From the NCBI GenBank assembly GCA_000002435.2, contig CM018792.1: a DNA stretch of 64,000 nucleotides, one strand, 5' to 3'. The DNA is from Giardia intestinalis. Its lineage: Eukaryota. Under the pieces are notes generated by a model, which searched no databases, was not told where the DNA came from, and was given only the letters and a program-made list of their open reading frames with translations. The translations under genes were made by a program, and so were the position numbers. Shown here one piece after another: positions 7,038 to 49,939 of the stretch. Position 1 is the first letter of the stretch. Every line of letters begins with the position of its first letter.

Positions 7038-10000
7038 TCACATGACTCTCATTTCAGCACTCAGGCTTTCGAGATAGATAAGCTCTATTTGTCTGGACAG
7101 GGGTAGGTCCCTGCAAACCTTAAAGAAATGGAAGAATGATGTCTGAAGGGCAAAAAGCTGAGGGCGCATTAGAGTGGTAGCGAAGACTGAGTCACGATCG
7201 CTAGTATAGTACAAGAGAGGCATGGATCCATGCGGCAAAATGGATGAAGCAACGCTCAGTGGAAAGGTGTGCTCAATAATGTACTGCAGTAGGGTGCTCA
7301 CGTGCTTGTATAGTTTTTCAGATGGAGGGATGGCATGGAAGTGAAGATAGTTGTATTCTACGTGCGCCAGAACGTTTTTGATGAGAGAAATGCACTTCTT
7401 CAGCGTTGACACAGACTCCATATAAAGTGAAAGCGTAAATAATGCTGTGTTGAAGAGAAACTGGTGTAGAGATGTAGAGTCAATAGTAACAAGGAACTCC
7501 TGATTAGATTTATTGTAGGAGTAAAACACAGATAGTTGTTCCAGGGCCAATGCAGCTTCTTCGCGCTTGGATTGGGGAAAGGAGCTTATGATAGAGATCA
7601 GTTCAGAGTCTATATTTCCATAAGCAAATAATTCAAAAGATGAGACCACAGAGGTCGATTGGGCCCTATTATTGGAGGAAGCGTCCGCTGAATAGCGATT
7701 TGAGTAGGGTAGAAAGCGAGAGATTATCAAATACAAAACATCGTCGTCGATAACATCTTTAAACATAGGATAATTGTTGTAGATTGCAAGTGTGAGGATG
7801 AGGTGCAGCTGTGGATATGCCTCTAATCTGAGCACAGCACATGAAACAGCCGCTATGCTTAGTGATTCTGCTAAATTGCCTGCCTCGGTCAATAAAAGGC
7901 TTATATAAAGCGTAAGTATAATAGAAAGACACAAAGACAACGTTTTGGGACCAAATGTTCCCACAGAGCACGAAGAAACAAATGCGTTAGACAGTTGCAC
8001 AGATAGAAGCCTACAAAGGCCTTCCTGGTCCGAAGACTGTTTCAGAAGCTCGTACAGACAAGTAAAGATGGAGGTGAACACGGCCTCATTGGAAAGCGCA
8101 TATGAAAAGAGCGTGCTCAAGCATGCTTCTGTTTTAAGATAAGAATCTTGCCGCTGAGTGTTGCACTTGCAAACCAGCTCCTTGGCTAAGCGCACCGGAA
8201 TTTCATTGAGCGCCTTTTCAATCTCAGGTCGAGATTGCTCTGCCCCTTCTTCTACAGATATGATCATACTTATCAAAGTAATGGCGTTGATTATTATTCG
8301 AGTGGCAATCTCAATGCTTTCCGTAAGACGTGGAAGAAGAGAGAAAACTGTGGAACAAAGGTCTAACAGCACTGCAGACGACTGACAGCTTGCTTTTCCA
8401 TCGATAACTAGCAATGAAAGAATGTCTTCAAGAAGAGCCGTCAGAGACAGCATAGCGTCTTCGTCCCCTAAATCTGATAGCAAGGAAAGCCAAGGACTAT
8501 GCTCCAGGCTCTTTTGAAAGATCTCTGGGAAAAATGAGTCCATCAATGGATATTGCATAATTCTGGAGAACAGCTCCTCAAAGGATAAGTTAGTGGCTTT
8601 TGTGACACCATCATCACTGTGCATCAACTGGACGTCATCTGGCTTCATGCCCATACAGAAAAGTCTGATAGAGTCATCCACCATGGACAGGCCCGTAGCC
8701 ACAGAGAGTGAATGCGTCAGCGAAATAAATGCACGAATCACTTGTATCTTCAAGGGATAGGCTGCAGAAGATACTACACTCATGCAGGAGGTGAAGAAGA
8801 TGTGATGGCAAGAAACGATTGTTGCAGCCGGGGACGAGGTAGCCTTGCGAGATGTACTGGGAGAACAAGTGATCAAGATTGATATGGATTTGAAGAGCAC
8901 ATCGCGTGTCAGGACCAGTATATCGACTGGAGTACAGACAGACAAGTAGCTCCCCACTATTTTGCAAAGAAGCTCGACTATCTTGATGCGCATAACAGAA
9001 ATAGGTGTAGAGCAGAGACGAACGACACGAAGAAGCCCTATGCACCAGAGTTCTTTAAAGCAATCGTCACTTTGAGATCCAGAACATGTCAAAACGCTTT
9101 CATATACCTGCAAGTACTCTATAGCATCCACCAGTTTAGAATCCAAGAAATCAAAAAGTCTGTGCAGTATCAGGAAGTAGGCATGCAGGAATTTGTCTGC
9201 AAAAGTAGAAACTCGATCGAGCGCATGGTAATTGCTCAATATAGAGGCTAGGAGGCCTACACAATTCTGGTGTATCTTCATCACAGCCTGACTTGGGAGC
9301 TTGTCCTGACAAAGGATGGGTATATACATTATAATCTGTGACACTAACGTTAATTGGAGCAGAATCCTGCTTTCATTAGCGGCCGTAGAGTCACTGCCAG
9401 GGGTGGCATTGGGAAGAATAGTCATTGATGGCTTATAGTCATCTGTTAGCGCCAGACACAACTGTGAAAGCGTGCACAGAAACGTTTCTGTGGAAGCCAA
9501 CAATCCGAGTAGTGAATGAAGCTTTCTGAATGAGGACGGGAACAGAAGCAGCAGATCATCACGTCCAAATAGAGACTGAGTAGTTAAGGAATCTATCAGC
9601 TGTTCCTTTATCTCGGAAGACATATCAAACTCATCAAGAGACCGTAATGTCAGTGCCCCCAGAAGCAGTCCATAACCAAACAACAACGATAGGTCCTTTT
9701 CGTTAATCTCAATCAATCCATCATAAAATTGAGCATTGAAAGACTCACATACGCGTGCCATGGCAGCCGACTCTAGCAACCTTTGTCGCCACTCTGGCCA
9801 CTTTGAATCGTGGGAGATGCGAAAGAGCAGGCGTGCTTGAGTCTGAATGCAGATGGAGGTGAATTCCTCAACTGACGAAGCGCTCCTCTGAAGACTTTTT
9901 CTTTTTCGTTCATCAATAACTGAAAATAAAACAGAATTGCAATCCAATGAATTCGAATTCAATTTGCTTGATATTTCTTGTCCCAATAATATTGTTTCGT

Positions 10001-12224
10001 TGAGTGGATCATATAATTCTATAGTTGTTGCACTAATGCTATCGTCCGAGTGAGTATAAAGTATACTGTACAAGGTCTCTGCAGGAAACGGAGTTTGCAC
10101 AGAGTCAGCCACATGCCGGAAGTGGAGTATTCCAGCAAGTGATGCCAATAGGGCAGAGACGCATTGTGCTCCAGTGGATGACGCAACCAATCCACCAATG
10201 TGGGATAGAAGAAGACGGTGAAGATCGATGAGAAAATCTACATGAGAGAGCATCCTAGAGACAGTAGTGGAGTAAGACGTAGAGGTGCAAATGACGTGGG
10301 AGAATAAGCTAAAGCCCAGGTGAGACTCTGAATTAGCGATGAGAAGAGGGATGGAACAGTCAGGTTCCTTGGTCTGCTGTGCCACTTGAGTCACACAACT
10401 GCAATGAAGTAATGCCTGGACGCTTGCAAATGATACTCTGCAGGTATCCTTCCGACCTGCTTCGAGAGATAAAAGACACAAAAGGCAGGGTAGTGCTGAA
10501 ATAGCTCTAACCAGTCCCTCTAAATTAAGATCTTCCTTCTTTTCAGAAGCATGCAGCGCACTTTCTACAAAAGCACGTAAAAGGTCTAGAATCTTTGAGT
10601 GAGGGTAGCGATTAGCAGAGTCCTCAACAACGGTTGGAAGACAATAATCATGGGATAGTAAGCGATAGAGAGATAGAGCTGTGGCTAGAACGGTTGATGG
10701 AGTTAAGGCATTAATGAATACTTCACTGGTGATGAGTCTCTTGATTGTGCAATTCCAAGATATAAGTGAAAAACCACAAATATATAGCATTGGAACGTTT
10801 GTCTGCTTTCCTACATTCTTAGAATCCTTAGCCGATAGAGAATAAAGAGCTTTGAAGAGGGAGAAGTTTTGCACCGTGCTGCCTATGCTTTCTGATGACT
10901 CAAAGGATATGCCAAACTCAGTTTCTACTGTATCTATTGCAGTGCTCAATGACACACTATCATTAGTCAATAACATATTATATTGTGCAGTAGTCAAAGC
11001 ATCGAGTAAGGGCGCCAAATTGAAATGTGGACCAGGCTCAAGATCTGCCTCGTACACAGGAAAGATGTGCGAGGTGATAGCCAGACAAGTGTGGGTGACA
11101 AGGCATCTGGCTTGCAGTAAGGGAAGAAAGGCTTTTTCTGGTATGCTATTGGTCGAGTAGTATCCAGAAGACTCTGCCTCACGTAACGTCAGCAGTGCTA
11201 TCAAAAGAGTTTGGGACGATTGGTGATACTTGAGCAAAGAAACTGCAATGCTCAGAAGCATGTTGAAAGAGTAAATATATGTCAGTAAAAAAAGAGTGAC
11301 AGACGAAGGAGCTAGAGGGTTGTCCGGATTCATCAAAATAGCAGATAGCAAAAATGTAAACAGACACTGTGGCGAGTACTGGCTCGGTGATAGTTCTTCA
11401 GAAGACATCTCAGTAAGTTGTGCAAATACGTCATCTGCGTTCTGAAACTCTGGACGACTATACTCAGAGAAATTAGTTGACGTGAAATTATGTATTCGTA
11501 CCTTGAGCGCAGTTACCAATGTAGAGTCTATATCAAAGTTATATTTGATGGCTTGCTCTAAAGTCAATGCAGTTAGCCATAAAATGGAATCAATACTTTC
11601 TACAGGTTCTCGTAGCATTCTCATTAACGATGTCGTGGATAAAAGGCAAAGGATGCAATCATCTAACAACGGCGTTAGCACTTTCTGTTTAATATTTTCT
11701 GGTAACTCCATCTGCAGGAGCCTCACAATGCGTTGTTCTGCTTCAATGCGCAAGCACACGGGAACGTTTTTTACAGAAGAGGCATTGTAAATAGACAAGA
11801 GGAAGCATAGAGCAGACCCTGTCGCTATCGCACCGAACGCCTTCTGCTTAACTCCCGCGTCGACCAAACGAAAAAGTGTGTTAACCAGTAGTGTTGTCTT
11901 GGCATCAGCCGCGTATCTCTGCTGCATGGTAATGGGCTCAACGAAGGCCTTCGCCAAGACTTTCTCCAGATGAAGAGTCACAGGCCCAGATTGTACAGTA
12001 TTAATGATTAGGTTCAGAATCGGAAGGTGTGCGGCGCGGAAATTCTCATCTAAAAGCTGAGTGATAAGAATACAGAGAGATTCCTGGACTCCCAAGCTCA
12101 ACTCAGAACACTCCTGTGGATAGGCAGACAAGGCATCCTCTATGTCTCTGATCATACTTCTCATGTCTTCGGTCTTGGTGAGCGTTTTGCAAGAGCTGAG
12201 GGAGGGAAGGATTATGTGGGGCAT
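7038..12224 (-). CDS. very large hypothetical protein (1728 aa), Leu/Ser-rich, possibly helical-repeat scaffold
   Basis: Uninterrupted 5.2-kb ORF with no enzymatic motif recognised. Its 5' end overlaps ORF 12142-14103 on the opposite strand, so the true start may be an internal Met (e.g. MRSMIRD at ~12164). Confidence 0.6.
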   Translation of the reverse strand: MPHIILPSLSSCKTLTKTEDMRSMIRDIEDALSAYPQECSELSLGVQESLCILITQLLDENFRAAHLPILNLIINTVQSGPVTLHLEKVLAKAFVEPITMQQRYAADAKTTLLVNTLFRLVDAGVKQKAFGAIATGSALCFLLSIYNASSVKNVPVCLRIEAEQRIVRLLQMELPENIKQKVLTPLLDDCILCLLSTTSLMRMLREPVESIDSILWLTALTLEQAIKYNFDIDSTLVTALKVRIHNFTSTNFSEYSRPEFQNADDVFAQLTEMSSEELSPSQYSPQCLFTFLLSAILMNPDNPLAPSSVTLFLLTYIYSFNMLLSIAVSLLKYHQSSQTLLIALLTLREAESSGYYSTNSIPEKAFLPLLQARCLVTHTCLAITSHIFPVYEADLEPGPHFNLAPLLDALTTAQYNMLLTNDSVSLSTAIDTVETEFGISFESSESIGSTVQNFSLFKALYSLSAKDSKNVGKQTNVPMLYICGFSLISWNCTIKRLITSEVFINALTPSTVLATALSLYRLLSHDYCLPTVVEDSANRYPHSKILDLLRAFVESALHASEKKEDLNLEGLVRAISALPCLLCLLSLEAGRKDTCRVSFASVQALLHCSCVTQVAQQTKEPDCSIPLLIANSESHLGFSLFSHVICTSTSYSTTVSRMLSHVDFLIDLHRLLLSHIGGLVASSTGAQCVSALLASLAGILHFRHVADSVQTPFPAETLYSILYTHSDDSISATTIELYDPLNETILLGQEISSKLNSNSLDCNSVLFSVIDERKRKSLQRSASSVEEFTSICIQTQARLLFRISHDSKWPEWRQRLLESAAMARVCESFNAQFYDGLIEINEKDLSLLFGYGLLLGALTLRSLDEFDMSSEIKEQLIDSLTTQSLFGRDDLLLLFPSSFRKLHSLLGLLASTETFLCTLSQLCLALTDDYKPSMTILPNATPGSDSTAANESRILLQLTLVSQIIMYIPILCQDKLPSQAVMKIHQNCVGLLASILSNYHALDRVSTFADKFLHAYFLILHRLFDFLDSKLVDAIEYLQVYESVLTCSGSQSDDCFKELWCIGLLRVVRLCSTPISVMRIKIVELLCKIVGSYLSVCTPVDILVLTRDVLFKSISILITCSPSTSRKATSSPAATIVSCHHIFFTSCMSVVSSAAYPLKIQVIRAFISLTHSLSVATGLSMVDDSIRLFCMGMKPDDVQLMHSDDGVTKATNLSFEELFSRIMQYPLMDSFFPEIFQKSLEHSPWLSLLSDLGDEDAMLSLTALLEDILSLLVIDGKASCQSSAVLLDLCSTVFSLLPRLTESIEIATRIIINAITLISMIISVEEGAEQSRPEIEKALNEIPVRLAKELVCKCNTQRQDSYLKTEACLSTLFSYALSNEAVFTSIFTCLYELLKQSSDQEGLCRLLSVQLSNAFVSSCSVGTFGPKTLSLCLSIILTLYISLLLTEAGNLAESLSIAAVSCAVLRLEAYPQLHLILTLAIYNNYPMFKDVIDDDVLYLIISRFLPYSNRYSADASSNNRAQSTSVVSSFELFAYGNIDSELISIISSFPQSKREEAALALEQLSVFYSYNKSNQEFLVTIDSTSLHQFLFNTALFTLSLYMESVSTLKKCISLIKNVLAHVEYNYLHFHAIPPSEKLYKHVSTLLQYIIEHTFPLSVASSILPHGSMPLLYYTSDRDSVFATTLMRPQLFALQTSFFHFFKVCRDLPLSRQIELIYLESLSAEMRVM

Positions 12225-41184: not shown

Positions 41185-44100
41185 CTACGCTTTCCCCCGA
41201 CAAATAAACCACCAACAGAGGAAGCCGGCAAGGCCTCCGACGACGACCACCACGGCGACGGTGATACCTGCTATGGCGCCTGTGGAAAGGCCTCCCTTAT
41301 TGACGCTTCCACCGGCACCGCCGCTAGATACGCATGCGTTTGCGGCCTCGTCCAGTGCGTGCCCCTCCGCGCATGCTTTGCACTTGGCTGTGCCCGTGTC
41401 CCCTGTCGGCGCATCACAGGCCGCACAGTTTGCCACTCCTTTGTTGCTATCTGCACCAACGGAGTCTGAGCACAGAATGCACTCGCTGCCCGGTGTCTTA
41501 ACTGATGCCTTGTTTTGGAAAACACTTCCGTCAGCCTTGCAAGCGGCACATACCCCACCGACTGCATTGGTGCATATAAGTTCTCCGGGAGACGCCCCTG
41601 TTTTATAACAGCCGCCCATGAAGAGGAAGTACCCGTCGCCGCCACATTTACCACACGAGGTGTCCGTGCCCTCTATTGCGGCTCCGCCCGATTGCGTGCA
41701 CTTTGCCGTCTTTGTGACGAGATCGTCCCCGAACGCCGTGCAGACACCGTCGATGGGTGCGAAGCCCTGCTTGCATTGTGTACACGCTTGGGCTGATCCT
41801 ATAGTTACCAGTTTGTCGACCTCGCATTGGAAAGACGGAGGGGCCCTGCATGCGTTTGCGGCCTCGTCCAGTGCGTGCCCCTCCGCGCATGCTTTGCACT
41901 TGGCTGTGCCCGTGTCCCCTGTCGGCGCATCACAGGCCGCACAGTTTGCCACTCCTTTGTTGCTATCTGCACCAACGGAGTCTGAGCACAGAATGCACTC
42001 GCTGCCCGGTGTCTTAACTGATGCCTTGTTTTGGAAAACACTTCCGTCAGCCTTGCAAGCGGCACATACCCCACCGACTGCATTGGTGCATATAAGTTCT
42101 CCGGGAGACGCCCCTGTTTTATAACAGCCGCCCATGAAGAGGAAGTACCCGTCGCCGCCACATTTACCACACGAGGTGTCCGTGCCCTCTATTGCGGCTC
42201 CGCCCGATTGCGTGCACTTTGCCGTCTTTGTGACGAGATCGTCCCCGAACGCCGTGCAGACACCGTCGATGGGTGCGAAGCCCTGCTTGCATTGTGTACA
42301 CGCTTGGGCTGATCCTATAGTTACCAGTTTGTCGACCTCGCATTGGAAAGACGGAGGGGCCCTGCATGCGTTTGCGGCCTCGTCCAGTGCGTGCCCCTCC
42401 GCGCATGCTTTGCACTTGGCTGTGCCCGTGTCCCCTGTCGGCGCATCACAGGCCGCACAGTTTGCCACTCCTTTGTTGCTATCTGCACCAACGGAGTCTG
42501 AGCACAGAATGCACTCGCTGCCCGGTGTCTTAACTGATGCCTTGTTTTGGAAAACACTTCCGTCAGCCTTGCAAGCGGCACATACCCCACCGACTGCATT
42601 GGTGCATATAAGTTCTCCGGGAGACGCCCCTGTTTTATAACAGCCGCCCATGAAGAGGAAGTACCCGTCGCCGCCACATTTACCACACGAGGTGTCCGTG
42701 CCCTCTATTGCGGCTCCGCCCGATTGCGTGCACTTTGCCGTCTTTGTGACGAGATCGTCCCCGAACGCCGTGCAGACACCGTCGATGGGTGCGAAGCCCT
42801 GCTTGCATTGTGTACACGCTTGGGCTGATCCTATAGTTACCAGTTTGTCGACCTCGCATTGGAAAGACGGAGGGGCCCTGCATGCGTTTGCGGCCTCGTC
42901 CAGTGCGTGCCCCTCCGCGCATGCTTTGCACTTGGCTGTGCCCGTGTCCCCTGTCGGCGCATCACAGGCCGCACAGTTTGCCACTCCTTTGTTGCTATCT
43001 GCACCAACGGAGTCTGAGCACAGAATGCACTCGCTGCCCGGTGTCTTAACTGATGCCTTGTTTTGGAAAACACTTCCGTCAGCCTTGCAAGCGGCACATA
43101 CCCCACCGACTGCATTGGTGCATATAAGTTCTCCGGGAGACGCCCCTGTTTTATAACAGCCGCCCATGAAGAGGAAGTACCCGTCGCCGCCACATTTACC
43201 ACACGAGGTGTCCGTGCCCTCTATTGCGGCTCCGCCCGATTGCGTGCACTTTGCCGTCTTTGTGACGAGATCGTCCCCGAACGCCGTGCAGACACCGTCG
43301 ATGGGTGCGAAGCCCTGCTTGCATTGTGTACACGCTTGGGCTGATCCTATAGTTACCAGTTTGTCGACCTCGCATTGGAAAGACGGAGGGGCCCTGCATG
43401 CGTTTGCGGCCTCGTCCAGTGCGTGCCCCTCCGCGCATGCTTTGCACTTGGCTGTGCCCGTGTCCCCTGTCGGCGCATCACAGGCCGCACAGTTTGCCAC
43501 TCCTTTGTTGCTATCTGCACCAACGGAGTCTGAGCACAGAATGCACTCGCTGCCCGGTGTCTTAACTGATGCCTTGTTTTGGAAAACACTTCCGTCAGCC
43601 TTGCAAGCGGCACATACCCCACCGACTGCATTGGTGCATATAAGTTCTCCGGGAGACGCCCCTGTTTTATAACAGCCGCCCATGAAGAGGAAGTACCCGT
43701 CGCCGCCACATTTACCACACGAGGTGTCCGTGCCCTCTATTGCGGCTCCGCCCGATTGCGTGCACTTTGCCGTCTTTGTGACGAGATCGTCCCCGAACGC
43801 CGTGCAGACACCGTCGATGGGTGCGAAGCCCTGCTTGCATTGTGTACACGCTTGGGCTGATCCTATAGTTACCAGTTTGTCGACCTCGCATTGGAAAGAC
43901 GGAGGGGCCCTGCATGCGTTTGCGGCCTCGTCCAGTGCGTGCCCCTCCGCGCATGCTTTGCACTTGGCTGTGCCCGTGTCCCCTGTCGGCGCATCACAGG
44001 CCGCACAGTTTGCCACTCCTTTGTTGCTATCTGCACCAACGGAGTCTGAGCACAGAATGCACTCGCTGCCCGGTGTCTTAACTGATGCCTTGTTTTGGAA

Positions 44101-45627
44101 AACACTTCCGTCAGCCTTGCAAGCGGCACATACCCCACCGACTGCATTGGTGCATATAAGTTCTCCGGGAGACGCCCCTGTTTTATAACAGCCGCCCATG
44201 AAGAGGAAGTACCCGTCGCCGCCACATTTACCACACGAGGTGTCCGTGCCCTCTATTGCGGCTCCGCCCGATTGCGTGCACTTTGCCGTCTTTGTGACGA
44301 GATCGTCCCCGAACGCCGTGCAGACACCGTCGATGGGTGCGAAGCCCTGCTTGCATTGTGTACACGCTTGGGCTGATCCTATAGTTACCAGTTTGTCGAC
44401 CTCGCATTGGAAAGACGGAGGGGCCCTGCATGCGTTTGCGGCCTCGTCCAGTGCGTGCCCCTCCGCGCATGCTTTGCACTTGGCTGTGCCCGTGTCCCCT
44501 GTCGGCGCATCACAGGCCGCACAGTTTGCCACTCCTTTGTTGCTATCTGCACCAACGGAGTCTGAGCACAGAATGCACTCGCTGCCCGGTGTCTTAACTG
44601 ATGCCTTGTTTTGGAAAACACTTCCGTCAGCCTTGCAAGCGGCACATACCCCACCGACTGCATTGGTGCATATAAGTTCTCCGGGAGACGCCCCTGTTTT
44701 ATAACAGCCGCCCATGAAGAGGAAGTACCCGTCGCCGCCACATTTACCACACGAGGTGTCCGTGCCCTCTATTGCGGCTCCGCCCGATTGCGTGCACTTT
44801 GCCGTCTTTGTGACGAGATCGTCCCCGAACGCCGTGCAGACACCGTCGATGGGTGCGAAGCCCTGCTTGCATTGTGTACACGCTTGGGCTGATCCTATAG
44901 TTACCAGTTTGTCGACCTCGCATTGGAAAGACGGAGGGGCCCTGCATGCGTTTGCGGCCTCGTCCAGTGCGTGCCCCTCCGCGCATGCTTTGCACTTGGC
45001 TGTGCCCGTGTCCCCTGTCGGCGCATCACAGGCCGCACAGTTTGCCACTCCTTTGTTGCTATCTGCACCAACGGAGTCTGAGCACAGAATGCACTCGCTG
45101 CCCGGTGTCTTAACTGATGCCTTGTTTTGGAAAACACTTCCGTCAGCCTTGCAAGCGGCACATACCCCACCGACTGCATTGGTGCATATAAGTTCTCCGG
45201 GAGACGCCCCTGTTTTATAACAGCCGCCCATGAAGAGGAAGTACCCGTCGCCGCCACATTTACCACACGAGGTGTCCGTGCCCTCTATTGCGGCTCCGCC
45301 CGATTGCGTGCACTTTGCCGTCTTTGTGACGAGATCGTCCCCGAACGCCGTGCAGACACCGTCGATGGGTGCGAAGCCCTGCTTGCATTGTGTACACGCT
45401 TGGGCTGATCCTATAGTTACCAGTTTGTCGACCTCGCATTGGAAAGACGGAGGGGCCCTGCATGCGTTTGCGGCCTCGTCCAGTGCGTGCCCCTCCGCGC
45501 ATTCCATGGGACTGCTTATTCCCTCTATTGTTCCGCACTGATTGCCAGTTGCGCGACTGTTTCTAGTGCCTCCAGCGCAGTTTGCAGCAAGCACATTCAG
45601 CACGAATAGAAGCTCTACTACCAACAT
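41185..45627 (-). CDS. vsp: variant-specific surface protein (VSP) containing ~8 identical 172-aa tandem repeats (1480 aa)
   Basis: Signal peptide MLVVELLFVLNVLAANCAGG, CXXC-rich ectodomain with GGCY motifs, C-terminal TM helix and the tail 'GFLCWWFICRGKA'. The internal unit 'CAEGHALDEAANACRAPPSFQCEVDK...TGDTGTAKCKA' is repeated 8 times. Confidence 0.9.
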   Translation of the reverse strand: MLVVELLFVLNVLAANCAGGTRNSRATGNQCGTIEGISSPMECAEGHALDEAANACRAPPSFQCEVDKLVTIGSAQACTQCKQGFAPIDGVCTAFGDDLVTKTAKCTQSGGAAIEGTDTSCGKCGGDGYFLFMGGCYKTGASPGELICTNAVGGVCAACKADGSVFQNKASVKTPGSECILCSDSVGADSNKGVANCAACDAPTGDTGTAKCKACAEGHALDEAANACRAPPSFQCEVDKLVTIGSAQACTQCKQGFAPIDGVCTAFGDDLVTKTAKCTQSGGAAIEGTDTSCGKCGGDGYFLFMGGCYKTGASPGELICTNAVGGVCAACKADGSVFQNKASVKTPGSECILCSDSVGADSNKGVANCAACDAPTGDTGTAKCKACAEGHALDEAANACRAPPSFQCEVDKLVTIGSAQACTQCKQGFAPIDGVCTAFGDDLVTKTAKCTQSGGAAIEGTDTSCGKCGGDGYFLFMGGCYKTGASPGELICTNAVGGVCAACKADGSVFQNKASVKTPGSECILCSDSVGADSNKGVANCAACDAPTGDTGTAKCKACAEGHALDEAANACRAPPSFQCEVDKLVTIGSAQACTQCKQGFAPIDGVCTAFGDDLVTKTAKCTQSGGAAIEGTDTSCGKCGGDGYFLFMGGCYKTGASPGELICTNAVGGVCAACKADGSVFQNKASVKTPGSECILCSDSVGADSNKGVANCAACDAPTGDTGTAKCKACAEGHALDEAANACRAPPSFQCEVDKLVTIGSAQACTQCKQGFAPIDGVCTAFGDDLVTKTAKCTQSGGAAIEGTDTSCGKCGGDGYFLFMGGCYKTGASPGELICTNAVGGVCAACKADGSVFQNKASVKTPGSECILCSDSVGADSNKGVANCAACDAPTGDTGTAKCKACAEGHALDEAANACRAPPSFQCEVDKLVTIGSAQACTQCKQGFAPIDGVCTAFGDDLVTKTAKCTQSGGAAIEGTDTSCGKCGGDGYFLFMGGCYKTGASPGELICTNAVGGVCAACKADGSVFQNKASVKTPGSECILCSDSVGADSNKGVANCAACDAPTGDTGTAKCKACAEGHALDEAANACRAPPSFQCEVDKLVTIGSAQACTQCKQGFAPIDGVCTAFGDDLVTKTAKCTQSGGAAIEGTDTSCGKCGGDGYFLFMGGCYKTGASPGELICTNAVGGVCAACKADGSVFQNKASVKTPGSECILCSDSVGADSNKGVANCAACDAPTGDTGTAKCKACAEGHALDEAANACRAPPSFQCEVDKLVTIGSAQACTQCKQGFAPIDGVCTAFGDDLVTKTAKCTQSGGAAIEGTDTSCGKCGGDGYFLFMGGCYKTGASPGELICTNAVGGVCAACKADGSVFQNKASVKTPGSECILCSDSVGADSNKGVANCAACDAPTGDTGTAKCKACAEGHALDEAANACVSSGGAGGSVNKGGLSTGAIAGITVAVVVVVGGLAGFLCWWFICRGKA
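41300..45500. repeat. tandem array of ~8 apparently identical 516-bp units inside the VSP coding region
   Basis: The six-frame track shows identical ORFs recurring every 516 nt (e.g. 41618, 42134 ... 45230 and 41515, 42031 ... 45127). The flanks diverge at ~41330 and ~45497. The period is a multiple of 3, so the frame is maintained. Confidence 0.9.
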
Positions 45628-45985: not shown

Positions 45986-48486
45986 TCCTATGCCCGCCTC
46001 CCCTAGAAGCTGCCGCTCCTCGCGGTGCCCCCTAGGACTTCCTTCTCTCTGGCCCGTCGGGGCCAACCATCGTCTGGCATCTAGTGAGCACCCGCTGTCC
46101 CGGGCCTTGCGTCGGTCACAGGACCTGGCCTCAGAGCAGTTGACTCTGGCGCTCCGTGACGAAGATGGGATACGCCACGACCCCGGGTGCCTACCCCGTT
46201 CCTCGGGGTGCCTCTTCGTCTTCTCATGAAGCGAGTCATCAGTCCCGAGTATGATCGGAGGGTGCGCTCCCCGTGCGCCTCTGTCTTGGAGTCATAGTAC
46301 GCGTTCGTGGATGCCGGCGGAGTACTCCTATACGTTGGCGTCGGGGAGGAGGCTCGGCCCTCTGCTCACGGATCGCAGGGCGCTCTTGCAGGTGCTCCGT
46401 CACCCAGCACGAGATCATGTCGACGCTCACCCTGTGCAGTGTGTCTGGCTCAGTGATGTGTGGGCTGGTCCATCCTCACACCGCACACTTGGGGTGATGC
46501 TTCGGTCCACCGAGGCGTCGTCCAAAGCATCAGAAGCGATCAGGACCGGTTCGCTGTCAGGCCGTCTCTCTCTACAACCGGCACCCGTCTACTCGATGGT
46601 GTCAAAGGATTACGCAGCTGCTGTGGTAAGCGCCCAGCAAGTGGCCCAGGCCGCCACCACTCTCCGGTGCAGGCAGGATTAGTCCACTTCTGCCAGCCAG
46701 ACACTCCAAGGATCCCGACTTGCCTGTCGAGGGATTCACATGGGTCACGTGTGGGTCCGTCTCGACCAGCGTGGTGAGTGATTAGTGCCATCACTAGCTT
46801 CAAGCTCTCCGTTGCCTTGGAAGCTCCTTAAGACCGGCCAGGAAGAAGGCCTCCTGCTCCTCAGTGCTCCCACACCCAGTGTTGACCGTCGAGCCAATCG
46901 CTTCGCCGGGCCTATCGCTTCTGTGACTGCCCCGTCGCGTCGCTGTCGTCGGCACGGGCAGTGAGCGGGGCATCTCCTCAGCTCCTGGCGAGCAGGTTCT
47001 GTCCCGCGCAGCACAGAAGCATGCGCAGGGTCCCGAGGGACCGAGTCCAGGGGTGCAGCGTGTCGCAGCCGGAGGAAGGCCTCGACGCAGCTCCTTGGAA
47101 CTGTGTTGTGGAGCGAATCATGATCGTCCGTTCATCGTGCTTGTCCTGCCCTGTCTCTGGGGAAGGGCTAGACGGAACCGTACGGAGCACGCATTCCATC
47201 CTATGGATCGCGCCGAGGATCTCGCTGAAGGCCTGCACCCGGATGGGCTCGCCAGCGCAGGCCCGGAGACTTCGAGCCCCGCGGACTGGCCGTCCGTGCT
47301 CTCCGATGGCTGAGGGGGCTCTTGTCTCTCAGGGGCCAGGCCGTCCTGATCCGGCCCTCTGGATAGCAAGGTGCTGGTCGTCGGTGGCGCTGTTAGGGGG
47401 CAGCTCCCCCTCGAGGCGAGGCTTCAGGCCGGGCAGTGGGGTGGTGAATGCCGCTCCTCCGCTTCCCCGCTGTGTGGGGAGGTACCCTCCCCTGAGCACG
47501 TTCGCACGAAGGGCGCTGAAGAGGACGTCCTTCTCCATCCCCGCTGCCCCACTCAGTAGCACCCTGCATCCGGTGTCCGTGCTGCATACGTCTGGACGGC
47601 CTCGCCGCGGAGGGTCTTCGCGCAGGACAGGCACGTGCTCTTCCGCTCCTACTACTTTGGCGTTCGCCCGGTGCCGCTCCAGCGCAGAGTGCTCCTCTCC
47701 GTCAGGTTCCTAAGGTCCTCGTTCTCGCTGTGATACCTGATCTATCCCTCTTGAGGGGTGGGGTTCACGGTGCACTGGTGCGTGTCCGGGGCGACGTCTC
47801 CCTTGTAGAGTTCTGCAGGTTCCACGACCCTCTGGGGATAGCCAGCGACTGGGACCCCTGTTTGAGGCTAGGGCTGGCCTGGCTCCACCGGGCCGCGAAC
47901 AACTCAAGGGCGCTCTGGTGTCGCTGGTCTCTCAACCGCACACTCGACCTGTCTTAGCAGATAACGGGTCGTGCCTGGGCACCTCCGGGAAGCGCTCCGG
48001 TCCGATGCTTTCTGTCCGGGGCATCACGGCAGGCAACGGTGAGGGCCCACGAGGGACACCGCACTCGGGCGCCGGGGCATGGTGCATGGGCTGGCACCGT
48101 CTGTCTGTCGCAAGGCTGCAGAAGGAGCTCAGACGGGGAGGGTTCCCGAGACGTGCTGCTCAGGGCCCTCCGGTGATGTGAAGGAGGCGTGGCAGCTCCT
48201 CGTGCTGTGGATCGCATAGGAGGTCCCCGATGGTGCAGTCTCTTAGTGAACTCCAGCATCCTTGAGCCAGTTCGTGTAGTCAGCGAGTGACCCCATTGGG
48301 ACCATTGAGAGCCTGCCACCATGCGCCGCTCTCCATGACAGGGAGGTGCGGGCCCCCTGCTCACTCTATCGGCTGCTCTCTAGACTCTCTTCTTCGGGCC
48401 TCTACAAGCCCTCCTCGGCGGCTTCCCGTCTGGGCCTCTCCCAAAGGCTCGGACTCTCAGACCTCGAGGGTGCGCAGAGGGCTGGC

Positions 48487-48738
48487 GGGTGCTGGGCCGG
48501 CGGGGGGTCCGGCGAGGGGCCGCGGTCGGTTAGCTCAGTCGGTAGAGCGTCAGTCTGATAAGCTGAAGGCGGGTGCTGGGCCGGCGGGGGGTCCGGCGAG
48601 GGGCCGCGGTCGGTTAGCTCAGTCGGTAGAGCGTCAGTCTGATAAGCTGAAGGCGGGTGCTGGGCCGGCGGGGGGTCCGGCGAGGGGCCGCGGTCGGTTA
48701 GCTCAGTCGGTAGAGCGTCAGTCTGATAAGCTGAAGGT
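48487..48738 (+). repeat. three tandem 84-bp units, each containing 41 nt of GC-rich leader plus the 5' 43 nt (acceptor-D-anticodon arm) of tRNA-Ile
   Basis: The unit 'gggtgctgggccggcggggggtccggcgaggggccgc|ggtcggttagctcagtcggtagagcgtcagtctgataagctgaagg' recurs at 48487, 48571 and 48655. Only the third copy continues into the variable loop, T arm and acceptor 3' strand. Confidence 0.8.
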
Positions 48739-48764
48739 CGGGGGTTCGAGCCCCCCACCGACCA
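48692..48764 (+). tRNA. tRNA-Ile (anticodon GAU)
   Basis: Manual cloverleaf: 7-bp acceptor GGTCGGT/ACCGACC; D arm GCTC-AGTCGGTA-GAGC; anticodon arm TCAGT-CTGATAA-GCTGA (U33, anticodon GAT, A37); 5-nt variable loop; T arm GGGGG-TTCGAGC-CCCCC; discriminator A. No encoded CCA. Closely resembles eukaryotic tRNA-Ile genes. Confidence 0.8.
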
Positions 48765-48778
48765 CTTTGTCTTCCATA

Positions 48779-48970
48779 ATGGGTCCTCTGTGGTGGGTCC
48801 TCTGTGGTGGGTCCTCTGTGGTGGGTCCTCTGTGGTGGGTCCTCTGTGGTGGGTCCTCTGTGGTGGGTCCTCTGTGGTGGGTCCTCTGTGGTGGGTCCTC
48901 TGTGGTGGGTCCTCTGTGGTGGGTCCTCTGTGGTGGGTCCTCTGTGGTGGGTCCTCTGTGGTGGGTCCTC
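48779..48970. repeat. 14-bp minisatellite (ggtcctctgtggtg)n, ~13.5 copies, starting 15 nt after the tRNA
   Basis: Perfect 14-nt periodicity across 48781-48967. It produces the artefactual periodic ORF 'GPLWWVLCGGSSVV'n in the frame track. Confidence 0.85.
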
Positions 48971-49495
48971 GTGAGCCTGGACGGGCAGTCGTGCCTAGGG
49001 GAGTGCACCGGGGACAAAGTGGTGGGAGAGGTGTCCGGCGGCGTGCGGAGGTGCTGGTGCGAGCGGGGCCTCCTGCCGGCACTGGACAGATCCGAGTGTG
49101 TGCCCGCAGCTGAGTGTCCCCCTGATATATACTCATGACGTTTCCACAATTCTTCATAGAGTTGTGAATATCTGATATCTTTTAAAAGTAGTCACAAATT
49201 GTATGCATTTGCTATGACGATCCTTGCACAGATTGTTATTAAATATTGCTAAAACTAACCGTGTGTTCAATCTTCAAAATAAAAGATTTAGATCTAAATA
49301 ACAACATACATTTGGACACAGCCTTCTGAGAGCGCCAACTACTTTCACGTTTTAATCTTGTCCTCATCTCTACTTCTAATTCTAGACAAGTTCCATTTCG
49401 CTGATTGCCTAACTTTTAGTAAACCAAGGCGCTGCAAATTATCACTATATCAAACTTCTAATGTCTTAGAGTTCCCTTTACTTAACTGTAGATGC

Positions 49496-49939
49496 TTAAT
49501 TAATATTTGCAAGCTCAAACTGATCGTGCGCTGTTGACGCCTTGACGATGGCTTTGGTAGATGCTTCGCAAAAGCGCCCATTCATTATTATTTCATCTAA
49601 GACATGATATGCCTTAAGGTAGTTGAAAATAAGGTCAAGCTCGCTTACACCTCCAAAGTATCTATCGAGACACGTAGCAAAGAAGTGGATCATTTCATGT
49701 GCTAGTAGCTTGTTGTCTGAATTCTCAACTGCAAAGACAATCGTAAGGTCTGCATACTGCCTTAAGATAAGAGAACCTCTATCCCAGTCGATAATCCCAT
49801 TAGAAAGCGAGGCGTGGAGCTTCACAGTCCGTATAGCAAGCTGAATTGCGGCGGCTTGCTCAGCTGCCAGTAGGACCTTATACCACTTGAGCAGCCGGAT
49901 CTCGCTCTGTCCGTTGAATATGAGAACAAATTCAATCAT
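49496..49939 (-). CDS. clathrin adaptor (AP) complex sigma subunit
   Basis: 147-aa protein 'MIEFVLIFNGQSEIRLLKWY...LIFNYLKAYHVLDEIIMNG...ASTKAI' matching the sigma-adaptin consensus (MI.F.L..N.QGK.RL.KWY...ELD.IFNF.K.Y.ILDE...GGE..ETSK). Confidence 0.85.
   Translation of the reverse strand: MIEFVLIFNGQSEIRLLKWYKVLLAAEQAAAIQLAIRTVKLHASLSNGIIDWDRGSLILRQYADLTIVFAVENSDNKLLAHEMIHFFATCLDRYFGGVSELDLIFNYLKAYHVLDEIIMNGRFCEASTKAIVKASTAHDQFELANIN

Follow-up and report, generated by a model that had tools for sequence, protein, structure and literature searches.

What are the truncated repeats of a tRNA gene that stand directly in front of that gene in Giardia intestinalis, a source of RNA in their own right or the remains of a duplication? 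The question arises in a stretch of DNA of 64,000 nucleotides (hereafter the window, by which we mean the whole stretch that was analysed), in which a tRNA-Ile(GAU) gene is preceded, head to tail and on the same strand, by copies of its own 5' part together with the leader upstream of it.

The gene that closes the array is a canonical tRNA gene, as the original prediction had it. ARAGORN calls a single tRNA in the 64-kb window, a tRNA-Ile with anticodon GAT at 48692-48765, and the interval given in Table 1 matches the Rfam tRNA model RF00005 with 74.7 bits, far above the gathering score of 29. Its minimum-free-energy fold is the complete cloverleaf, at -33.1 kcal/mol (z = -2.84 against shuffled sequences). 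The gene is directly followed by CTTTG, in which the T run has only three residues (TTT at 48766-48768), and the next run of at least four T is found at 49180, 416 nt downstream of the gene. In most eukaryotes, AUU and AUC are read by a tRNA-Ile with anticodon AAU (inosine), and we noted that the anticodon at 48725-48727 is GAU. We also noted a 19-nt inverted repeat, complementary at 16 of 19 positions, between the tRNA 3' end with its trailer (48753-48771) and a stretch within the VSP fragment further downstream (49013-49031), which may be due to chance.

Table 1. Features in and around the tRNA-Ile array (positions are those of the window; tRNA positions are counted from the first nucleotide of the gene)
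Feature	Start	End	Strand	Description
Relic tRNA-Ile 5' fragment	45906	45932	+	Positions -2 to +25; 25/27 nt match; same orientation as the gene
GC-rich dispersed repeat	45937	48333		About 2.4 kb; about 64% GC; apparently non-coding
Canonical G-quadruplex motif	48479	48507	+	Loops of at most 7 nt; the only one in the 64 kb; at the 5' edge of the array
Leader copy 1	48486	48523	+	38 nt; 89% GC; CGGGTGCTGGGCCGGCGGGGGGTCCGGCGAGGGGCCGC
Truncated tRNA copy 1	48524	48569	+	Positions 1-46; 100% identical to the gene over 46 nt
Leader copy 2	48570	48607	+	Identical to leader copy 1
Truncated tRNA copy 2	48608	48653	+	Positions 1-46
Leader copy 3	48654	48691	+	Actual 5' flank of the intact tRNA-Ile gene
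Intact tRNA-Ile(GAU) gene	48692	48764	+	73 nt; A and B boxes both present
14-bp minisatellite	48780	48970	+	TGGGTCCTCTGTGG x 13.6, perfect; starts 15 nt after the tRNA
VSP/HCMP-like gene internal fragment	48966	49128	+	163 bp; multi-copy sequence

The repeat in front of the gene is regular. TRF reports a period of 84 over 48484-48742, with 3.1 copies, 99% matches and a score of 509, and a repeat search of the window returns three 86-nt copies that are 100% identical and spaced 84 nt apart, so the predicted 84-bp unit recurring three times is indeed there. With up to three mismatches allowed, the 25-mer at the 5' end of the tRNA occurs four times in the window, where 0.00 occurrences are expected by chance. 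Head-to-tail units of this size (minisatellite units are about 10-100 bp long) and of this identity are a property of minisatellites. The original prediction was headed as three copies preceding the gene, while its text described two truncated copies followed by an intact one; the text is correct and the heading is not, as only the two truncated copies listed in Table 1 precede the gene.

The composition of the unit also differs from what was first proposed, namely a 41-nt leader plus tRNA positions 1-43, truncated right after the anticodon stem and near the sites of tRNA introns and of tRNA-half cleavage. Each unit is instead the 38-nt leader followed by positions 1-46 of the tRNA: the identity of the copies with the gene extends to position 46, ending in GCTGAAGG, and then switches to CGGGTGC. 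The break is therefore in the variable loop, and not at the canonical intron site (37/38) or in the anticodon loop, the site of tRNA-half cleavage. The truncated copies keep the 5' strand of the acceptor stem, the D arm (with the A box), the anticodon arm and three nucleotides of the variable loop, and they lack the T arm, the B box, the 3' acceptor strand and a terminator. The dinucleotide GG at 48484-48485 precedes leader copy 1 (ctGG/CGGGTGC, where the slash here and below marks the breakpoint) and matches G45-G46 of the tRNA, which is a microhomology of 2 nt.

As one possible origin of the array, the original prediction had named replication slippage or unequal recombination, and it had proposed a comparison of unit copy number in other isolates. 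We reached the orthologous locus of isolate DH (GCA_000498715.1, L001) through the flanking sigma-adaptin protein (49496-49939, minus strand), so that copy numbers are those of two assemblies, the window and DH. In DH, four truncated copies precede an intact tRNA-Ile gene, compared with two in the window, and the units are 72, 103, 103, and 103 nt long, compared with 84 nt. Every copy in DH breaks at GAAGG/CGGGTGC, which is also the breakpoint of the array in the window, and the leader lengths differ across the isolates (26, 38, and 57 nt). Variation in copy number and unit length between genomes, which is another property of minisatellites, is thus seen in the two genomes compared, and with junctions that lie at short direct repeats (see below) it supports slippage or unequal recombination. 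A breakpoint shared by arrays that differ in copy number and unit lengths points to an array that predates the split between the two isolates and has changed since.

DH was the only assembly to span the array. The other short-read contigs that we found through sigma-adaptin do not contain it and end before or within the VSP fragment or the 14-bp repeat on its 3' side, several of them in or near the fragment or the adjacent minisatellite, and in two more divergent isolates, with 93% identity in sigma-adaptin, the contigs end shortly after the neighbouring gene. A search of metagenome contigs with a 38-mer of the tRNA gave no matches. These broken contigs indicate a region that is hard to assemble, and exact repeats are prone to expansion or collapse by assemblers, so one might suspect that the repeat, or at least its copy number, came from the misassembly of a GC-rich region with low coverage. 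We consider this highly improbable. The junction between position 46 and the leader is present in two independent assemblies, with unit variants that are different and internally consistent, and a misassembly would not yield unit variants (72, 84, and 103 nt) each of which can be traced to a short direct repeat. The shared breakpoint and the differing units of the two assemblies argue for a single old duplication that was later remodelled, and not for an artefact of one assembly.

Within the array, there is very little variation among the parts themselves. All of the 46-nt copies in the window and DH are identical (8/8), and so are nearly all of the 38-nt leader cores, while the sequence around them differs by about 5%; about 1.9 differences are expected per leader, and the probability of finding none is about 0.15. 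Recent expansion, or concerted evolution with a gene that is under selection, can explain why the copies and leader cores would be the same, although such identity across isolates is also what would be seen if the unit were constrained, in a sample that is too small to tell these apart.

The junction of the 84-nt unit makes use of the GG that precedes copy 1. The 103-nt unit of DH corresponds to an unequal exchange between two (C)GGGTGC motifs, which the native flank contains at a distance of 19 nt from each other. The 72-nt unit corresponds to a 12-nt deletion between CCGGCG repeats, and in the first DH leader 14 nt are missing between GGCGGG repeats. Short direct repeats of 2-7 nt can account for every junction and every length variant, again as in minisatellites. 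In addition to the canonical G-quadruplex motif at the edge of the array, each leader has a relaxed motif with one 8-nt loop, and the adjacent 14-bp minisatellite is itself a relaxed G-quadruplex motif.

Based on these observations, we think it likely that the array is a microhomology-driven minisatellite, which arose by tandem duplication of a segment running from the GC-rich 5' flank to position 46 of a functional tRNA-Ile(GAU) gene and which is a by-product of that process. The founding 84-bp junction would have formed once, at the 2-nt GG microhomology between ...ctGG/CGGGTGC upstream and ...GAAGG/TCGGGG in the tRNA. The array would then have expanded, contracted and changed its unit length through replication slippage or unequal sister-chromatid exchange between the direct repeats of the leader, a remodelling that was probably favoured by the G-quadruplex-prone runs of G and by the recombination-prone, VSP-associated setting. 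The tRNA would be made by the 3'-most copy alone. A tandem duplication with one breakpoint inside the gene turns A-B-C into A-B-A-B-C, leaving truncated copies upstream and the intact gene at the 3' end, so that selection need not be invoked for the fact that the last copy alone is complete.

The truncated copies might nevertheless have a role, and the original prediction had suggested two, the production of extra 5' tRNA halves and the recruitment of TFIIIC by the duplicated A boxes. As tRNA genes, they are incomplete, ending at position 46 with no T arm and no 3' acceptor strand. ARAGORN calls none of them in either the window or DH. Against the Rfam model, they score 27.8 bits in the window, which is less than the gathering score, and 27.5-29.7 bits in DH, and they reach these scores only when GCCGGCG from the next leader stands in for the missing 3' acceptor strand. 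Their predicted folds are no more stable than those of shuffled sequences (z = -0.14 and 0.10 for the truncated copies, -0.17 for one unit, and -0.72 for the whole array). A reading of the array as a structured RNA was accordingly rejected. There is no run of at least four T within or after the units before the one at 49180, so any transcript started upstream would read through into the real tRNA-Ile gene.

Nor do the copies have the ends that would be expected of tRNA fragments. In Giardia, sitRNAs are the ~46-nt 3' portions of mature, CCA-bearing tRNAs and are made from nearly all tRNAs; the cleavage that produces them falls within the anticodon stem, on its left arm, they carry no leader, and no 5' halves were cloned (PMC2577346). 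Later work on Giardia tRNA fragments is summarised in a review as dealing with cleavage-derived species (PMC11764236). The copies in the array run as far as position 46 of the variable loop, whereas a tRNA half would end in the anticodon loop and a sitRNA at the left arm of its stem. With no terminator, no T arm or 3' acceptor strand to serve RNase P and RNase Z, folding z-scores near zero, and published sitRNAs that are 3' fragments, the suggested 5' tRNA-half locus finds no support.

As for the second suggestion, each partial copy does contain an A box. In other eukaryotes, the main anchor of TFIIIC is the B box, which is absent from the truncated copies, so they do not qualify as extra-TFIIIC-type sites either. 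The recruitment of TFIIIC is further weakened as a proposal by the lack of a homologue in Giardia: neither TFIIIC nor TFIIIA homologues were found in isolates WB, GS and P15, where only TBP and BRF were detected (PMC3369914).

The same absence can be turned into an argument for function, as promoters in Giardia may then be located upstream, and each unit duplicates the region from -1 to -38. According to this argument, every unit would bring its own Pol III promoter, in the leader or in the A box, and would either give rise to RNAs that resemble 5' fragments or T-armless tRNAs, or boost initiation at the downstream tRNA gene. The units are perfectly conserved in both isolates despite the divergence nearby, and the truncated copies score close to the Rfam threshold as T-armless tRNA-like sequences, both of which fit. 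We nevertheless regard a functional RNA locus as very unlikely. The units have no T run in or after them and no excess folding stability, their length and leader content vary between the isolates, and the known sitRNAs are leaderless 3' parts. What brings the Rfam score near the threshold is almost wholly the genuine 46 nt, together with five chance pairs in the 89%-GC leader.

One could go further and imagine each unit as an autonomous Pol III initiation module, with initiation depending on the flank, from which leader-containing or T-armless RNAs or a stack of Pol III would result; such a stack would, with the G-quadruplex motifs, act as a barrier to replication and recombination that marks the edge of a variable VSP domain. 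We give this idea hardly any credence. Judging from what the copies contain, they are most likely inert, or at most would be transcribed within an extended 5' leader and then removed by RNase P.

Two stop-free ORFs cross the array, one of 283 aa on the plus strand (48287-49138) and one of 251 aa on the minus strand (48402-49157). Long ORFs run through it on both strands because 84 bp amounts to 28 codons and the sequence is GC-rich. Neither ORF has a match in Pfam, and the sole homology is that of the 55-aa VSP fragment, which in the spurious 283-aa ORF is fused in frame with the minisatellite. In DH, the 103-nt units break the frame of the long ORFs, and we rejected a coding reading of the array. 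It is worth knowing that gene callers might annotate both ORFs as hypothetical proteins. Protein look-ups for the window ORFs 46251-46682(+), 46961-47713(+) and 48402-49157(-) found nothing on record.

The setting of the array is that of a variable region. The tRNA-Ile gene is at the edge of a GC-rich block, with 58-64% GC compared with about 45% elsewhere. Between the window and DH, the flanking genes are 99.3-99.7% identical and the 184 nt upstream of the array 95.1% identical, while identity is 86-90% in the interior of the block and 89.9% in the stretch just downstream, so that divergence in the block is 5-14% versus 0.3-0.7% for the flanking genes. The tRNA-Ile gene sits exactly at the border between conserved genes and this fast-changing, VSP-associated block. 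Regions surrounding VSP genes are known to be gene-poor and to have more allelic variation (Xu et al., PMC7000408).

The minisatellite that follows the tRNA gene varies as well: the window has 13.6 copies, ERZ19219916 has about 4.5 (of a variant with a 15-bp unit), and DH has about 1.5. The VSP fragment next to it shares 85-87% of its amino acids with GL50803_100877 and DH proteins, and 92-93% of its nucleotides with two DH loci (L010 and L011), neither of which has a tRNA or tRNA fragment. The protein matches in the region are named as VSP and hypothetical proteins of Giardia lamblia or Giardia duodenalis. On the other side of the block is a 1480-aa VSP ORF (41185-45627, minus strand) that ends in CRGKA, a VSP signature, and contains about eight tandem repeats of 516 bp (172 aa). 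This ending and the names of the protein matches bear out the assignment of the window to Giardia in the original prediction. We noted that the DH ortholog of this gene has a single repeat unit, which may be an assembly collapse or a real difference.

Outside the array, only one other fragment of the tRNA-Ile gene is found in the 64 kb, the 27-nt relic listed in Table 1. It is 2.6 kb upstream of the array, with the VSP start codon about 280 bp away, and it is conserved in DH. Its similarity to the gene beyond position 25 is not significant (451 of 2000 shuffled sequences score as well), and nhmmer extends it only at low posterior probability. The left edge of the dispersed repeat is 4 nt away from the end of the relic, and its right edge is uncertain, as weak similarity runs on to about 48440. 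The orthologous copies of this repeat in the window and DH are 86-90% identical, compared with more than 99% for the flanking genes. A paralogue with 80-87% identity is found on another DH contig (L012, at about 8772-11223), beside a 1165-aa VSP gene. A six-frame Pfam scan of the region from 45628 to about 48550 found no domain, and in particular no reverse transcriptase, integrase or VSP domain.

These features invite the idea that a mobile element was involved. The insertion of the ~2.4-kb dispersed repeat, or the repair of a break, would have duplicated the 5' part of the tRNA gene, the fragments would be target-site or att-like duplications, and the array would have grown later. The relic lies at the left edge of the repeat in the orientation of the gene, the array and gene are within about 150 nt of its right edge, and the paralogue in DH indicates a sequence that occurs elsewhere. 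We find this scenario unlikely. No reverse transcriptase, integrase or transposase signal is detectable in any of the six frames, and the L012 paralogue has no tRNA or tRNA fragment alongside. The relic breaks at about position 25 instead of 46, which makes it a different event. Transposition does not make head-to-tail units with junctions at short repeats, so that an insertion can account for the relic and not for the array. The relic is an older and separate rearrangement at the tRNA-Ile gene. tRNA genes are hot spots of rearrangement, and the relic would be consistent with this.

The array, as a minisatellite made from part of a gene, is a biologically modest finding, and it may be useful in several ways. 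It is a clean natural case in which the breakpoint of a tandem duplication inside a gene leaves one intact gene plus dead copies, and it illustrates how short G-rich repeats remodel a partial duplication. Closely related isolates of assemblage A differ in the 84/103-bp array and in the adjacent 14/15-bp minisatellite, which are candidates for high-resolution typing. The truncated copies come close to the thresholds of tRNA finders (up to 29.7 bits in DH), and could be annotated falsely as tRNA pseudogenes or inflate tRNA counts. In small-RNA data, reads from the tRNA-Ile 5' region can be assigned to the truncated copies only if they cross the GCTGAAGG/CGGGTGC junction, because positions 1-46 are identical to those of the real tRNA. 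In our literature searches we found nothing relevant on this locus or on Giardia minisatellites at tRNA genes.

Several known systems resemble the array in part. Giardia sitRNAs are also about 46 nt long and derived from tRNAs, but they are cleaved 3' portions that carry CCA, whereas the copies in the array are 5' portions at the level of DNA and end at position 46 (PMC2577346). tRNA-derived SINEs are likewise a case of 5' tRNA sequence that is not part of a functional tRNA gene. However, SINEs retain both internal promoter boxes (A and B), possess a body that is not related to tRNA as well as a 3' tail, and occur as dispersed copies flanked by target-site duplications, whereas the copies here have no B box or T arm and are strictly tandem. 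Partial duplications of tRNA genes are typical of insertion sites, such as the att repeats of bacterial genomic islands and the targets of the Dictyostelium TRE5 and yeast Ty3 elements. The similarity is that the relic and the intact tRNA gene bracket the dispersed element. The differences are that no Pfam domain, integrase or reverse transcriptase is found in the six frames, that the 5' and not the 3' part of the tRNA is duplicated, that the L012 copy has no tRNA beside it, and that insertion leaves the array unexplained.

In Entamoeba, there are many tRNA arrays and the repeated units hold complete tRNA genes, whereas the Giardia locus is a single gene with truncated, presumably dead copies. 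What the two have in common is a protist tRNA locus with tandem repeats that vary in number between isolates; polymorphic short tandem repeats in the tRNA gene arrays of Entamoeba histolytica are used for strain typing (PMC2888827). Defining features of each of these systems were looked for and are absent, so the array does not belong with tRNA-half loci, SINEs, the tRNA arrays of Entamoeba or att-type duplications.

The closest likeness is to minisatellites and partial tandem duplications, which are also arranged head to tail in units of tens of base pairs, nearly identical in sequence, variable between isolates, bounded by direct repeats of 2-7 nt and prone to form G-quadruplexes. The array in the window differs from these in that its unit takes in positions 1-46 of a Pol III gene and the flank of that gene, so that it resembles a truncated tRNA gene.
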